DNA of 35,237 nt from an uncultured virus (IMG/VR IMGVR_UViG_3300012361_000002) (taxonomy: Duplodnaviria; Heunggongvirae; Uroviricota; Caudoviricetes): IMG/VR virus record IMGVR_UViG_3300012361_000002. One strand, 5' to 3'. A program made the position numbers and the translations under genes. Positions 896 to 12,599 of the stretch are shown here, in pieces (position 1 is the stretch's first letter; each line of letters begins with the position of its first letter). The notes beneath the pieces were generated by a model. The model had not been told where the DNA came from and made no database searches. It saw only the letters and a program-made list of their open reading frames with translations.

Positions 896-2407
896 CTACT
901 CCGCTGCTTGCAGATGCCTCACGGCATTCTGCTTCGATTTCGCGAACGCAATATTGCGCGAACGAATCCACTGCGCAACCTCGAACGAGACCTCCGTCGG
1001 GACTTTCTGCATGTAGTTCGGCCATACACCGAACTTCTCACGAAACATGTGCGCCGCGCGGCCGTCCTGGCTGCCTTTCTCGCGGCAGTATTGTAGCAGC
1101 TGCGAGTAGAACAGTTGCTTTTCTGCTGGCGTATATTGCCGGCTCAGCGCCTGCCCCGTCTTCTGCATCGCGCCAGGGACGTACTCGACCAGCACGCCAT
1201 TGCGCTCGACCACGCCTGACGCCAGCGGGAGCATGTGGCCGCACTCGGTGCATGTCCGATTGAGCCGCGGGACGATCGCCTGGCACTCGGTGCACGCCCG
1301 CGGCAGCGGCTTCTTGCGCTTGGCGTCCTTCGCCTTGCCGTTCGGTTTGCCGTCGTCCAACCGATCATAATGAATATCGGTTACCAAACCGAGTTCCATC
1401 GTTGAGTTACTGTGATCCAGAATTATTGCGCAATCCTTGTTCGTCGCTGTGCGAAGACATCTGCCAATAATTTGGGTATATAGGATGGGACTCTTCGTCG
1501 GCCGCCCAAGAACCAAACACCTCACGTCCCAATCTACCCCACAAGTGAGAGTCCCGATATTTACAACCACGTCGATCTGGCCGTTGTGGAACCCGCGCTT
1601 GATCTCCTGGCGTTCCGCCGACGGCGTCTCGCCATCTTGGTACGCCGACGACACGCCCGCTTCCTGGAACCGGTAGTGGACCGTCTCGGCGTGCTTCCTA
1701 TCGACGCAGAACACGAGTGTGTTCGGCTTCCCCCACATGCGCTTCCATGTGTCGATGATGTCCGCCGTCAGCGTCCCGCCGCACATGGCGTCCGAGAGTT
1801 GATCCTTGACGTACTCGCCGGCGACGACCTTCACCTCGGACAAGTCCGGCTGCCCGGTGCAAAATACCTTGAACTTCGACAGGAGACCCTTGTCGATGAG
1901 TTCCTGCGTCGTCGCGATGATAAGCAAGGACTGGAAATACTTCCCTAGCCCCTTGGACCACGGCGTCGCCGACAGACCAATGAACGGGACGTTCTGCCAC
2001 GCAGCATCTGCCAGCCATTGCTTGTGGAAGTCGTGCAGCGAGTGCACCTCGTCGAAGATCACCGTCTTCGCCTCGGGATACGCGCTGCGGCTTTTCAGAG
2101 TTTGTATGCTGCAAATTTGGACGGGTTTTGCCCAATCAGTCATCGAGTGGTTCGCCTGGATCACCCCGATGTCCCTGATCCCCTCGGCGTAGAACGCCTC
2201 CACCGTCTGATCGATGAGACCGATCGCGTTCACTACGAACGCCAGCCTGTTACCCTTGCGAATCGCCCCATCCACGATCGCCGCCGCCATCCGCGTCTTG
2301 CCTGCCCCCGTCGGTGCCTGCATCACGACCCGCCTCACACCCTGCTGGATCGTCGCGCGCAGGTCGTCCAAACCTTGCTGCTGGTGTTCCCAAAGCGATT
2401 TGTTCAT
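896..2407 (-). CDS. SF2 DExH helicase with C-terminal Zn finger (RadD/YejH-like)
   Basis: Walker A APTGAGKT, DEVH, motif III LSATP, motif VI QIIGRCLR, and CTEC...CTEC. Confidence 0.93.
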   Translation of the reverse strand: MNKSLWEHQQQGLDDLRATIQQGVRRVVMQAPTGAGKTRMAAAIVDGAIRKGNRLAFVVNAIGLIDQTVEAFYAEGIRDIGVIQANHSMTDWAKPVQICSIQTLKSRSAYPEAKTVIFDEVHSLHDFHKQWLADAAWQNVPFIGLSATPWSKGLGKYFQSLLIIATTQELIDKGLLSKFKVFCTGQPDLSEVKVVAGEYVKDQLSDAMCGGTLTADIIDTWKRMWGKPNTLVFCVDRKHAETVHYRFQEAGVSSAYQDGETPSAERQEIKRGFHNGQIDVVVNIGTLTCGVDWDVRCLVLGRPTKSPILYTQIIGRCLRTATNKDCAIILDHSNSTMELGLVTDIHYDRLDDGKPNGKAKDAKRKKPLPRACTECQAIVPRLNRTCTECGHMLPLASGVVERNGVLVEYVPGAMQKTGQALSRQYTPAEKQLFYSQLLQYCREKGSQDGRAAHMFREKFGVWPNYMQKVPTEVSFEVAQWIRSRNIAFAKSKQNAVRHLQAAE

Positions 2408-2416
2408 GTTGCGCCC

Positions 2417-2632
2417 TCACCGATTTGCAACCGTTGGTCCAAAACCGGTGTCGCGCGCGTGTCGCGCGTATACGTTCCCCCCTAGTTTGTTTAAGAAAGA
2501 TTGCTCTCCAGTACAAAGTTTTCCTTCTCTTCCTGCCTTCCTCTCTTGTTTCCCTTCTTGGAGAGGCAAAACAACAAATGAAGGAAGCAAGATGGGGTTA
2601 CCTGCGCGCGCGAGGGCAAATGTCTGGAACAT
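2417..2632 (-). CDS. Hypothetical small protein or replication-region remnant
   Basis: GAGGAG 8 nt before ATG at 2632; purine-skewed tract and CGCGCG runs. Confidence 0.35.
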   Translation of the reverse strand: MFQTFALARAGNPILLPSFVVLPLQEGKQERKAGREGKLCTGEQSFLNKLGGNVYARHARDTGFGPTVANR

Positions 2633-2733
2633 GGGCACGTCTCCTCGTTCCCAGGGAACTTGTCCCGGGTGGTTGTGGTGGTATCAATGTGGTTCACACC
2701 TCGCCGTGGCCTTTGGCGAGGTTCGACGTTACT

Positions 2734-3084
2734 TCAGGCAGCGAGCTTCTTTTGGGATTTAGACTTAGCGAAGTGCTCAGCCAGTTTTGCCAGAGCTTGA
2801 TCCTGATCAGACTTCGTTACCTTGCCGCACGGCTCTCCGGACAGGTCGACGCGATCGACGTCTTCGACAAGGCAGCGTCGGTATCTGATTGTCTTGGTAT
2901 ATCGGTAGAGGGTACGGTTGATCTTCTCTTTGCTGAGGAGCGGTAATTGTTCTTTGAGATCGACGTGGATGCCGATCTTGAGGGGTTTTGGATTAGCCTT
3001 CCAAGCAAAAAATGCCTTTGGAAATACGGCTATCAATACCGGAAGCATCTCTCCGGGGATGTTTCGTTTGGGACTAGGCGACAT
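2734..3084 (-). CDS. ProQ/FinO-domain RNA chaperone
   Basis: FPKAF...PKPLKIGIHVDL...LYRYTKTIRY...RVDLSGEPCGKVT matches the ProQ/FinO signature (PLKIGI, Y, RxDLxG). Confidence 0.92.
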   Translation of the reverse strand: MSPSPKRNIPGEMLPVLIAVFPKAFFAWKANPKPLKIGIHVDLKEQLPLLSKEKINRTLYRYTKTIRYRRCLVEDVDRVDLSGEPCGKVTKSDQDQALAKLAEHFAKSKSQKKLAA

Positions 3085-3089
3085 GGAAA

Positions 3090-3111
3090 CCCCTCATTCT
3101 TGGTCGAGGGG
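3090..3111 (-). promoter_or_regulatory. Hairpin sequestering the ProQ/FinO Shine-Dalgarno
   Basis: mRNA reads CCCCTC-GACCAAGAAT-GAGGGG-TTTCC-ATG; the SD is paired in a 6-bp stem. Confidence 0.6.
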
Positions 3112-3112
3112 A

Positions 3113-3141
3113 TTGACGAGACGAGATATTTTACATATTTC
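3113..3141 (+). promoter_or_regulatory. Sigma70-type promoter of the antisense sRNA
   Basis: TTGACG-17 nt-TATTTC immediately before a two-hairpin, U-tract unit. Confidence 0.55.
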
Positions 3142-3146
3142 ATCTC

Positions 3147-3225
3147 TTGGATGCGTAGCCGACCAAAGCACTTCGCATCCGAACCCGGCGGTTGAGGCTA
3201 CGGCCTCCTGCCGGGGTTTCTTTTT
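3147..3225 (+). ncRNA. ~80-nt two-stem-loop sRNA antisense to the proQ-operon leader
   Basis: Stem TTGGATGCG/CGCATCCGA with a loop containing CGACCAA, then a C(UACG)G-capped hairpin and TTTCTTTTT. Confidence 0.65.
3182..3225 (+). terminator. Intrinsic terminator
   Basis: CCCGGCGG-TT-GAGGC-TACG-GCCTC-CTGCCGGG followed by a T run. Confidence 0.75.
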
Positions 3226-3495
3226 GTAATCCCGCCGTCATGTGTTCGTCAACCAGCATTGTGCTGTTGATAACTATGTGAATACGCAACGTCTCGTATA
3301 GTGTGCCAGCGCTAACGCTAGGGATTGATTCCGCGGGTCGACATCCTTGTCCGGCAATGAGTACACTCCGCTTTTGCGGAAGCGCGACAAGGAACCGGAG
3401 GATGTCTTTCTGGGAACTATCGAGCCCCGCGGTGCCCGACAGGGAATACACCTTGCCGCACCGATGGGAGCATAGCGCCATGGTATCGCGTTGAG

Positions 3496-3536
3496 GTCAA
3501 CACCGGTTGACGCCACGAATCATCTGGGCATAAGGT
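3496..3536. promoter_or_regulatory. Back-to-back -35 elements (palindrome) with a rightward promoter
   Basis: GTCAAC-ACCG-GTTGAC palindrome; TTGACG(3507)-18 nt-TAAGGT on the + strand. Confidence 0.5.
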
Positions 3537-3541
3537 CACTT

Positions 3542-3678
3542 GCTCCGCGGCAGCTACAACAGCCTTTGACGATTTGGGAGTCGGAGGAAGCTATGTGCTG
3601 GAGACGGTCATTCCCAAAGGCCAACCCTCCAGATTACCTTCCCACGCTGGGCTGGCGACCAAGGGCTAGCTGCGGAGC
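3542..3678 (+). ncRNA. ~140-nt structured RNA with closed ends and complementary loops
   Basis: Stems GCTCCGC/GCGGAGC, AGCTA/TAGCT, GCCTTT/AAGGGC, GGAAG/CTTCC and CTGGAG/CTCCAG; loops TTTGGGA and TCCCAAA are complementary. Confidence 0.6.
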
Positions 3679-3693
3679 GCTTCTCCACCACTG

Positions 3694-3723
3694 TTGACGC
3701 CGCGTCCCGCGCGGGATTAGCGT
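3694..3723 (+). promoter_or_regulatory. Putative sigma70 promoter
   Basis: TTGACG-18 nt-TAGCGT upstream of the hairpin/tRNA-like cluster. Confidence 0.4.
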
Positions 3724-3869
3724 TCCACATGGTTCGTGGTGCGCCTTGCTGAGTCACCATCTGCGGTGCCAGGGTCGGGTCCATCGCCCCCCTATCCCTC
3801 CGGCCCTGGCGTCGTCAGCTATTAATTCTGCCGTGTGCTTGGACGTGGAAATCTAGTACTCGGCAGATC

Positions 3870-3917
3870 GACGGCGGCAGGCTGGGTAGGTCGCAAGACT
3901 TGCAGCCTGCCGCCGTT
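3870..3917 (+). other. Long GC-rich hairpin with GCAA tetraloop
   Basis: ACGGCGGCAGGCTG/CAGCCTGCCGCCGT perfect 14-bp stem capped by GTC-GCAA-GAC. Confidence 0.6.
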
Positions 3918-3923
3918 AGCTAC

Positions 3924-4018
3924 GATCCCGTGGCGGAACGGTAGACGCGGCAGGATAGGTCTGCCGGCATCGGAACCACTCTCACGATGCCGTGGAGGTT
4001 CGAATCCTCCCGGGACCT
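3924..4018 (+). tRNA. Degenerate tRNA-Leu(TAG)-like RNA (pseudo-tRNA)
   Basis: Acceptor GATCCCG/CGGGACC, Leu-type D arm TGGCGGAACGGTAGACGC, T arm GGAGG-TTCGAAT-CCTCC and long variable arm. The anticodon loop is shortened and no CCA is encoded. Confidence 0.65.
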
Positions 4019-4045
4019 CTTAACAATGCAGGAGACATCAACAAC

Positions 4046-4705
4046 ATGGCAAAAGCGGCAACGAAGAAGAACAAATCCGGCAAGGTCGACGGCCGGTCGA
4101 AGGCGGCGCGAGCCGCGAAGGCAAAGACTGGCAGTGGCGGCAACGGCCGCGATCTGCATCTGTCAGATAACGGCGGGAATCAGGAGGCGATCCAGGCCAG
4201 CTTCCTGCAGCACCGCAACCTATGGAACAACGCCATCGCCAAGCTGAAGGTGGCCGAGAAGGCGCTGAAGGAGGTTGTAGCCGACGCCAAGGCCGAAGGA
4301 TTCTTGAAGCTACACTTCCAGATCGCCGACGCGCTGACGGCTGGTCCCAAGAAGGAGGCCAAGGTCGTCGGCGAGGTGAAGAACCGTCTTCAGGTGGCCC
4401 GCTGGATCGGCCACGCGATGGGCAAGCGGATCGACCTCAACCAGCTCGACCTGTTCGCTCCGGACAAGCCGGCCGGCGACCCGGTCCAGGCTGCCTACGA
4501 GGACGGCGAGAGGGCCGGCCTGGGAGGCGTTACGGCGAACGTGCCTGGACAGTATTCAGCCAACGAACTCTCACAGGCGTGGCTCTCAGGCCACCACAAG
4601 GGGCAGTCCACGCTCCATAAGGGCATCAAGCCGCTGGAGGAGAAGACGGACAGCGTCGTCGGGCCTGCCGCCGGCTGGGGTGCGTCGAAGGCGACAACGG
4701 CATGA
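4046..4705 (+). CDS. Basic protein with GapR/DUF2312-like middle and Rmf-like C-terminal segment
   Basis: AGGAG upstream; Lys-rich N-terminus; LKEVVADAKAEGF; AYEDGERAG...QAWLSGHHKG. Confidence 0.6.
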   Translation: MAKAATKKNKSGKVDGRSKAARAAKAKTGSGGNGRDLHLSDNGGNQEAIQASFLQHRNLWNNAIAKLKVAEKALKEVVADAKAEGFLKLHFQIADALTAGPKKEAKVVGEVKNRLQVARWIGHAMGKRIDLNQLDLFAPDKPAGDPVQAAYEDGERAGLGGVTANVPGQYSANELSQAWLSGHHKGQSTLHKGIKPLEEKTDSVVGPAAGWGASKATTA

Positions 4706-7201: not shown

Positions 7202-7942
7202 ATGGTCGATTGGTCAAAGTACAATGTCGAATGTGCGGAATGCGGTGCCTATCTTTCCCGGATATTGTTCAGACCCAAAGATGGCAGGCGCATAGAGAGA
7301 TTTTTTTGCGATTTCCACTGCAAAGGACGATGGCAATCAAAGCAACATCCGGTTTCCAATGAGTGGCTCAGAGAAAAATACGTCGTAGAGGGTCTTGATT
7401 GTGTGCAGATTGGTAGACTCGTTGAGCGCGATGCGAAGTCTGTTTGGAATTGGCTCAAGTCAGCAGGCATTCCGACACGGCGGCGCGGCTCCGACAAACG
7501 GCAGCATTTTATAAAAGGGCAGAAAAATCTCTTCGAAGGACGGAAACATACCGAGGAAACAAAGCAGAAAATGCGTGAAATCGCTTTGGCAGATGGTCGC
7601 GTTCCATTCGATCCGGCCATCGGTTCTTACATGAAGGGGCGTAAGGGCGCGTCAACGCCCAGTTGGAAAGGCGGTATAACGCCGGAACGTCAGGCGTTTT
7701 ATTTGACCCGTGAATGGAAAGAAGCCGTCAAGGAAGTCTGGAAGCGTGCGGGTGCAAAATGCGAACGATGTGGAGTTGAACACAACACGTCGGAGCGGCG
7801 CGGGACATTTGATATTCATCATATCGTCAGTTTCGAGAACAGGACACTACGGGCCGTAGTGAGCAATCTGGCGCTGCTTTGTGAGCTTTGTCACATGTTC
7901 GTTCACAGCAAAAAGAACGTCAGCCGGGAGTTTCTAAAATGA
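7202..7942 (+). CDS. HNH homing endonuclease with NUMOD3-like motif
   Basis: GRKHTEETKQKM, PSWKGG, CERCG...IHHI...NLALLCELCH. Confidence 0.88.
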   Translation: MVDWSKYNVECAECGAYLSRILFRPKDGRRIERFFCDFHCKGRWQSKQHPVSNEWLREKYVVEGLDCVQIGRLVERDAKSVWNWLKSAGIPTRRRGSDKRQHFIKGQKNLFEGRKHTEETKQKMREIALADGRVPFDPAIGSYMKGRKGASTPSWKGGITPERQAFYLTREWKEAVKEVWKRAGAKCERCGVEHNTSERRGTFDIHHIVSFENRTLRAVVSNLALLCELCHMFVHSKKNVSREFLK

Positions 7943-12220: not shown

Positions 12221-12442
12221 ATGATGGCCGTGTCACGCAAAAATATCCTGCAATTGGATGCTGGCGTCGGCAATACGATCCATTTCACGAAGATGGAGAA
12301 TGGCAACCTGTACGTGGAGATCGAGAACGAGTGGGCCGGATCGACAGAAACGGGATTCGGCGCGACGACGTCGATCACGCTGGACCCTTCAGACATCGAG
12401 ACCTTCCTGGAATGGTTGAGCGGTGTTGACGCCGCCGGTTGA
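12221..12442 (+). CDS. Hypothetical protein
   Basis: AGGA RBS; globular-looking acidic product. Confidence 0.6.
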   Translation: MMAVSRKNILQLDAGVGNTIHFTKMENGNLYVEIENEWAGSTETGFGATTSITLDPSDIETFLEWLSGVDAAG

Positions 12443-12599
12443 ACCGTTGTTTGCTTGATCTAAGGTCGCCGCGTCCCAGCAACAGCCGTTTGCGTTTCCT
12501 GAAGGGAGGTCAACCGGGATTCATCACGCGGCTGAATGCGTGGCCCTCAGCAAGTTACCGGGGACGGGCGACCTGCCCAACAGATGGAGAACCGCCACC

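Follow-up and report, generated by a model that had tools for sequence, protein, structure and literature searches.

The PeSL (promoter-early stem-loop) cassettes of T4-type phages couple repeated strong early promoters to stem-loops within hyperplastic regions of the genome (Arbiol et al. 2010, PMC2839356). Recombination between the repeats best explains how the cargo is shuffled, and related phages differ by the insertion, deletion or replacement of modules; each stem-loop forms a compact hairpin, with a protein gene outside it as the cargo (PMC2839356). These cassettes appear to be the closest known kind to the element that is the subject of this report. Phage morons and accessory small-RNA cassettes are autonomous promoter-cargo units that occupy swap-prone slots. 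In phage T7 the tandem early promoters A1-A2-A3 are followed by an RNase III site, and in the msr-msd RNA of retrons the 5' and 3' ends pair (the a1/a2 inverted repeats) and enclose a structured, variable interior. A narrow literature search found no description of hairpin-framed RNA cassettes of the type considered here.

The element lies at positions 3542-3678 (+) of a 35,237-nt stretch of DNA from an uncultured virus, which we call the window. The explanation that we rank first, and hold tentatively at a little under even confidence, is that it is a cassette of non-coding cargo, framed by a hairpin, within a tandem array of early promoters. Selection looks to keep the promoter and the closing helix of this cassette, not the fold of its interior. 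The original prediction had described an ncRNA of about 140 nt; a promoter-driven, non-coding unit with paired ends is probably what the sequence specifies, and it is the defined tertiary fold that finds no support.

The window is phage sequence with a GC content of about 59%, and its gene groups were assigned by PHROGs and Pfam scans. The tail genes mark this uncultivated phage as siphovirus-like; they comprise tape-measure, tail and tail-fibre genes on the minus strand from 17 kb onward. Genes for a RuvC-like resolvase, a helicase, an HNH/NUMOD3 endonuclease, a DNA methylase, an exonuclease, a RecT-like protein and a polymerase exonuclease run rightward from 4046 to about 17 kb (+), a second helicase gene is read leftward (896-2407, -) and a gene for a FinO/ProQ-domain protein, here proQ, lies at 2734-3084 (-; Pfam PF04352, E = 5e-25). 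The element sits in a gene-poor divergent region of about 960 nt between two early operons, each of which has a helicase. The HNH and NUMOD3 domains belong to a free-standing, homing-endonuclease-like gene (7202-7942, +) between the helicase and DNA methylase genes.

Protein and DNA anchors led to two related viral contigs and eight metagenome loci, a comparison set that amounts to six variants from a handful of contigs. L013 and L015 match the window with 100% identity over 2300-4300; L010 and L016 are of the L002 type, L011 is of the L001 type, and L009, L012 and L014 are new variants. The DNA around the element is well conserved in this set, with 77-87% identity in the upstream flank (3402-3537) and 77-96% in the segments 3480-3537 and 3689-3823, the latter reaching 95.6% between the window and L002/L010. 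The element itself (3542-3678) is replaced by unrelated sequence of different length in L001/L011, L002/L010, L012, L014 and L009. The part that varies, the cargo, occupies 3556-3663 (+) in the window, and the corresponding interiors of the relatives measure 44, 74, 76 and 107 nt, the L009 contig ending within the cassette. The most elaborate arrangement is that of L012, where four promoter-led modules stand in tandem: a 44-nt cargo in a perfect 15-bp helix (module 1), a module without the standard arms (module 2), the L011 cassette (module 3) and, directly 5' of the first rightward gene, the conserved terminal module (module 4), which is similar to its L014 counterpart. Between the L011 cassette and its copy in L012 (L012m3), 4 of 104 positions differ; two of these are unpaired and the other two keep the pair (C-G to U·G and U·G to U-A). 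Judged from these sequences, the region appears hyperplastic, with relatives that differ by module insertion, deletion or replacement at repeats. The proQ gene is present in the window type, L011 and L009 (55% identity) and absent from L002/L010.

Wider searches added little to this set. A blastn search with 3100-4100 against 50,697 phage records gave no match, and the region is absent from the nearest virus record, G001. Scans of the genome collection with the 113-aa ORF that adjoins the element, the downstream DNA anchor, the promoter pattern and the two-loop pattern returned 0 hits; among viral contigs the promoter pattern found nothing new and the anchor patterns found just the two relatives already in hand. 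A helicase relative at 75% identity, L008, was rejected as it is not syntenic in this region.

Other parts of the divergent region also vary among the relatives. The 113-aa ORF (3140-3481, -) is doubtful as a gene: it has a GC3 of 0.60 and no Pfam or PHROG match, it overlaps a plus-strand terminator (3185-3228), and its frame is broken or carries an insertion of about 200 nt in L002 and L001; its L009 counterpart has a single frame with 51% identity over 112 aa. A tRNA-like gene of 96 nt at 3924-4019 (+) is odd, scoring 31.3 bits against the Rfam tRNA threshold of 29: its variable arm is very long, A2 and C71 are mismatched and the anticodon stem-loop is irregular. ARAGORN reads it as Thr(GGU) with two stem pairs mismatched, and an alternative, perfect 5-bp stem would present the loop GAUAGGU. 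This gene is absent from L001 and L002, which have other sequence in the slot, and it is likewise replaced in L010 and L014, apparently by small ORFs; in L012 there is nothing in its place.

The part of the locus that is repeated is the promoter. The original prediction had noted a -10-like box about 6 nt before 3542; this was located at 3530-3536, and a -35 box (TTGACG, 3507-3512) accompanies it. As read from the sequence, promoter P1 (3507-3536, +) comprises this -35 box, an 18-nt spacer and the -10 hexamer TAAGGT (3531-3536), and ends 6 nt upstream of 3542. A second promoter, P2 (TTGACG-N18-TAGCGT, 3694-3723, +), was identified by pattern match and conservation. The pattern TTGACG-N18-TAnnGT occurs twice in the window when both strands are scanned (at 3507 and 3694) against an expectation of 0.025, and 11 times in the six variants, in one orientation throughout; we take it to be a repeated sigma-70-like early promoter motif, as predicted from its boxes and their spacing. 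P1 is kept at this position in five of the six variants. In L010/L002 both of its boxes are missing, yet a cassette with a helix is present, so the promoter is not attached in every case. The cassette and P2 are joined by a conserved linker, CTTCTCCACCACTG(T) (3679-3693, +). This linker belongs to the repeated promoter unit. It is similar to the 12 nt that precede the P1 -35 box, with which it makes up a direct repeat, D1 (3497-3517 / 3684-3704), and it is kept in L011, L012 and L014.

Further promoter-like sequences were seen in the window. In the palindrome GGTCAACACCGGTTGACG (3495-3512) two -35-like hexamers, TTGACC reading leftward and TTGACG rightward, stand back to back with 6 bp between them; the palindrome is invariant across the variants, except for its rightward half in L002/L010, and may represent an operator or a pair of divergent promoters. 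Upstream of the RecT-like gene, an intergenic segment (12423-12466, +) contains a third GTTGACGCCGC box, which is followed by TTGAAC-N16-TAAGGT and may be a related promoter. A likeness of P1 and the 5' part of the cassette to the region upstream of the RecT-like gene (12418-12540) was rejected; it came down to the -35 box and a short CAACAGCC word.

Each complete cassette is closed by a helix. The pairing of the two ends of the window element exceeds chance; it extends over 14 bp in two segments, with an optional U·G pair, and not over the roughly 18 bp in three segments first proposed: 3542-3551 pair with 3669-3678 and 3552-3555 with 3664-3667, A3668 being bulged. The 5' arm (3542-3555, +) is defined by the minimum free energy (MFE) structure, pair probabilities of 0.98-1.0 and shuffles, and the 3' arm (3664-3678, +) by folds. 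The terminal duplex is worth -26.3 kcal/mol against a shuffle mean of -7.7, and none of 1000 shuffles equalled it. Helices of 9-15 bp close the MFE structures of all six complete cassettes (window, L011, L012m1, L012m3, L014 and L010), and they start about 6 nt past the -10 box in the five complete cassettes that are promoter-led; the partial L009 cassette has the same 5' arm at that place. Arms of the sequence GTTCCCGCGG / CCGCGGGAAC, with cassette-specific extensions, are common to four variants, and since these have nearly the same arms, part of the conservation of the helix is common descent. The window arms, GCTCCGCGGCAGCT / GGCTAGCTGCGGAGC, depart from the common ones by a double change from U-A to C-G, by the loss of one C-G pair on both sides and by extensions of their own, and the L010 arms are unrelated to the others. 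In the MAFFT alignment the inner helix pairs fell out of register, so pairing was assigned from the fold of each sequence separately.

These helices have some features that would be expected of RNA. They contain six G·U pairs against one C·A mismatch, a count that is merely suggestive (one-sided binomial of about 0.06). The MFE is clearly lower on the plus strand in two of the six cassettes (L012m3, -43.2 vs -30.7 kcal/mol; L010, -46.6 vs -30.8 kcal/mol) and slightly lower in L011 and L014, and the two strands are within 0.3 kcal/mol of each other in the remaining two, including the window cassette, which has no strand asymmetry (-56.7 vs -56.8 kcal/mol). The terminal duplexes favour the plus strand in four of five cassettes, L011 being left out. 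The pattern favours a plus-strand RNA helix, in small numbers of sequences. No U-tract is present 3' of the closing helix, which was not among the sites called by the terminator scan.

The DNA downstream of P2 contains a conserved terminal module (3730-3825, +), defined by a consensus fold of four variants and a single fold. It consists of a short hairpin, a long hairpin with a C-rich loop of 19 nt (UCCAUCGCCCCCCUAUCCC) and a U-rich tail; the two hairpins are found in the window, L010, L012 and L014, and the tail in the window, L010 (T8) and L014; the L012 module has no such tail and leads directly into the first rightward gene. A terminator-like site is located at 3806-3818 in the window. The segment 3694-3825 (+) looks like a gene for an sRNA with a loop of anti-Shine-Dalgarno type, or else like a leader and terminator before the early genes, and in the window P1 transcripts would probably end in this module.

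On the other side of the cassette lies the leader of proQ (3082-3180, -), for which a fold of three hairpins is predicted (z = -3.93; none of 200 shuffles equalled it). The last of these sequesters a Shine-Dalgarno-like GAGGGG in the predicted fold, and its loop, CGACCAAG, is complementary to the first-hairpin loop, UUUGGUCG. The loop pair co-varies, being UUUGGUCG/CGACCAAG in the window, UUUGGCCG/CGGCCAAG in L011 and UUGGCCGG/CCGGCCAA in L009, and may be a loop-loop switch that an antisense RNA could block. The arrangement brings to mind the Inc RNA of IncI plasmids and the control of repZ. A candidate small-RNA gene of about 80 nt (3113-3228, +) is divergent from the leader and antisense to it. 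Its features are a -35 TTGACG at 3113, the hairpin GGAUGCG...CGCAUCC and, at 3185-3218, a strong terminator followed by a tail, UUUCUUUUU. All three of the variants that carry proQ keep it (window; L011:925-1052; L009:765-905); among their differences are one compensatory change of a base pair and several G·U changes, consistent with the plus strand. RNAs bound by FinO/ProQ proteins have a terminator hairpin with a 3' U-tail and are antisense to, or linked with, the regulated mRNA (PMC9977716). By its sequence features the antisense RNA (3150-3228, +) looks like a better candidate ligand of the ProQ-like protein than does the cassette, in an arrangement like FinP/FinO or Inc/FopA. The cassette was rejected as a FinP-like ligand; its sequence and the terminator scan give it no terminator and no U-tail.

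What, then, does the interior of the cassette do? One answer was that the element is a discrete ncRNA of about 140 nt with a pseudoknot made by two kissing hairpin loops, of the sort found in riboswitches and self-cleaving ribozymes. The words from which that model was built are in place: TTTGGGA (3573-3579) and TCCCAAA (3612-3618) are a perfect 7-nt complement with their coordinates correctly given, and the arm words GGAAG (3586) / CTTCC (3638), CTGGAG (3598) / CTCCAG (3627) and GGTC (3606) / GGCC (3619) were also located correctly, with pairing that is modest (pair probabilities of 0.6 for the CTGGAG hairpin, 0.84 for GGTC, 0.4 for hairpin 1 and 0.2 for GGAAG). The enforced arms lie just 2 kcal/mol above the MFE (-53.1 vs -55.1 kcal/mol), the 7-bp loop-loop duplex adds about -7.9 kcal/mol, and L011 has an analogous 7-bp pair, GGAUUUC / GAAAUCC, that forms an ordinary nested helix there. 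However, a perfect inverted complement of at least 7 nt arises in 234 of 1000 dinucleotide shuffles of the interior (23%), and the MFE structure pairs UUUGGGA with the CUUCCCA region instead of UCCCAAA. The whole element has a z-score of -1.98 (6 of 200 shuffles as good; minus strand, -1.90), and the interior alone (3556-3663) is no stabler than shuffled sequence (z = -0.19; 79 of 200 as good), the five interiors that were folded giving -0.19, +0.30, -0.03, +0.14 and -1.18. Relatives replace the interior wholesale with unrelated sequence and conserve it in no case, which would not be expected of a specific tertiary fold; the other copies of the window cassette, in L013 and L015, are identical to it and offer no covariation. 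The scan for the two-loop cassette pattern found no further copy (0) in the viral contigs or the genome collection. The expectation that no named family would be matched was borne out by Rfam 15, with 0 gathering-score matches over the whole window; at E up to 10 over 3000-4300 there was no relevant ribozyme or riboswitch model, at E up to 1 the five related loci gave nothing relevant, and the only match overlapping the element was to a miRNA model on the minus strand (19.2 bits vs a threshold of 80, E = 1.1). GGA motifs, judged by eye with a CsrA sponge in mind, look near the expectation from base composition. A retron is excluded by the lack of any reverse transcriptase family (17 proteins against Pfam, 35 against PHROGs) and of an Rfam match. 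On this evidence the kissing-loop pseudoknot is very improbable, and with it goes the elaborate riboswitch- or ribozyme-like fold. We give less credence still to a micro-protein, which would be translated from the SD-like GGAGGA (3583-3588) and the ATG at 3593 for 34 codons to a TGA (3695-3697) within the P2 -35 box. All five cassettes examined are open throughout in the frame leading to that TGA, four of them with an ATG, and L012m1 also has an SD-like AGGAAGAGG. Against this, stops are scarce in all plus-strand frames of these GC-rich cassettes (0, 1 and 4 over the five), the candidate ORFs have a GC3 of 0.55-0.62 where most confident genes of the window have 0.70-0.87, the ATG is missing from L012m3 and the SD from L014 and L010, and the peptides share just 3-5 residues, encoded by the conserved linker. 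The same GC3, the SD or ATG missing from several variants and the scarcity of stops speak against a protein-coding ORFan as cargo.

Two further readings were weighed. If the locus acted as DNA, the inverted repeats would be recombination scars or sites, protein-binding half-sites or part of a replication origin between the two helicase-containing operons, and the GTTGACGCC boxes would be iterons or operators. Replication-type genes do flank the region on both sides, the repeats are spaced 118-187 bp apart, the upstream palindrome GTCAACACCGGTTGAC is operator-like and the window cassette folds equally well on both strands; the 6:1 ratio of G·U pairs to C·A mismatches and the much better plus-strand folds of L012m3 and L010 point the other way, as do the irregular spacing of the boxes and the lack of an AT-rich unwinding region. 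Every box has a TAnnGT correctly spaced 18 nt downstream, and promoters therefore fit better than iterons. The wobble asymmetry and the regular -10 boxes together disfavour a purely DNA-level role, which we consider improbable. A functional interior deserves more weight, if still rather unlikely: the cassette would yield an early, strongly expressed, trans-acting accessory RNA (a regulator, a decoy or a counter-defence agent) in which the helix is a scaffold and hypervariability reflects diversifying targets. In the window, single-stranded CGACCAAGG (3656-3664) would mimic the proQ leader loop, pair with the first-hairpin loop CUUUGGUCG and modulate translation of the FinO/ProQ protein. An accessory, swap-prone slot directly after an early promoter suits such a role. 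The identity of the cassette word at 3656-3663 with that of the proQ leader loop was correctly noted in the original prediction, the only other copy of it in the window being at 3099-3106 (-), in the leader hairpin loop; the stretch GCGACCAAG (3655-3663) is unpaired in the cassette MFE structure, the leader partner of the word co-varies in relatives, and L012m1 carries CGGCCAAA. Yet the L011 cassette, in the other relative that has both proQ and a complete cassette, contains no L011 version of the word, and neither does the partial L009 cassette. Complementarity between cassette and leader is at shuffle level (81 of 100 mononucleotide shuffles as good for the window, 26 of 100 for L011, by duplexfold, which is crude at this length), as is word sharing with the rest of the window on both strands (13 identical or complementary 10-mers observed vs 11.9 expected), and the interiors are no more structured than chance. 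A bolder version would make the locus an undescribed RNA cassette system, an RNA counterpart of the PeSL and moron cassettes, with a fixed promoter-and-helix 'socket' that would express swappable, hypervariable cargo as infection begins. The cargo RNAs would be diversified effectors acting in trans, whether as counter-defence decoys, as exclusion RNAs or as regulators of the FinO/ProQ module, the effect on proQ being exerted through the CGACCAAG loop mimic. We think this joint proposal distinctly unlikely.

In the reading that we prefer, of a non-coding cargo framed by a hairpin, each unit would consist of an early promoter of sigma-70 type (TTGACG-N18-TAnnGT), a cargo with 9-15 nt at either end that pair as the closing helix, the linker and the next promoter. 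From the position of the boxes we infer that transcription from P1 would start at about 3542 (3542-3543), coinciding with the first base of the helix. The 3' arm would be made about 135 nt later, and the RNA would then snap into a self-contained hairpin domain with its 5' end buried. There is no terminator after the helix, so this domain would lead a transcript of about 285 nt extending to the terminator of the conserved module downstream (about 3825); an alternative fate would be for the RNA to be cut off at the helix. Most likely the helix would insulate or protect the RNA, whether as a shield for the 5' end or as a site of processing, and it would keep an arbitrary cargo from disturbing the conserved RNA downstream. 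Recombination between the repeated promoter and linker segments would allow cargo to be gained, lost and exchanged among related phages.

If the cassettes are expressed, swap-prone early regions of phage genomes trade short ncRNAs in a standard promoter-and-helix socket, besides small protein genes. Such cassettes would have a simple signature, namely a repeated promoter, paired ends and unrelated interiors, by which accessory phage RNAs could be recognised in metagenomes, and they would be a natural example of RNA 'insulator' design. If they are not expressed, the locus is a caution that a GC-rich stretch of 137 nt can show a convincing pseudoknot by chance, the terminal helix being the sole selected feature.

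Comparison with the known systems places the locus nearest to the PeSL cassettes. The likeness lies in repeated, sigma-70-like early promoters with a stem-loop, in a hyperplastic region and in variable cargo between the repeats; a stem-loop coupled to the promoter is present at our locus too, though with its arms separated by the cargo. The analogy is partial, because the PeSL stem-loop is a compact hairpin at the promoter with its protein-gene cargo outside, whereas here the cargo is inside the stem-loop, between arms that are 44-108 nt apart. The cargo also seems not to code for protein and is much shorter than an ORFan gene, there is no U-tract at the helix and no sign that it terminates transcription, the phage is GC-rich and siphovirus-like instead of T4-type, and there are 1-3 cassettes per genome instead of about 50. 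The cassettes resemble morons in being units with their own promoter, in a slot that is filled differently in close relatives and whose neighbours hold accessory cargo (the tRNA-like gene, small ORFs and the proQ module); they differ in having no terminator of their own, and we know of no description of cargo-specific closing helices in morons. As in T7, the early region opens with two to four strong host-type promoters placed one after another at intervals of 120-190 bp, and the leader contains a double-stranded RNA element. That element is an RNase III site in T7, and cleavage of the helix by RNase III would here be purely putative; to our knowledge the inter-promoter segments of T7 have not been described as hairpin-closed or hypervariable. 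Retron RNA offers the same plan of paired ends around a variable interior, in company with a reverse transcriptase that the window lacks and as a family that Rfam does not find there.
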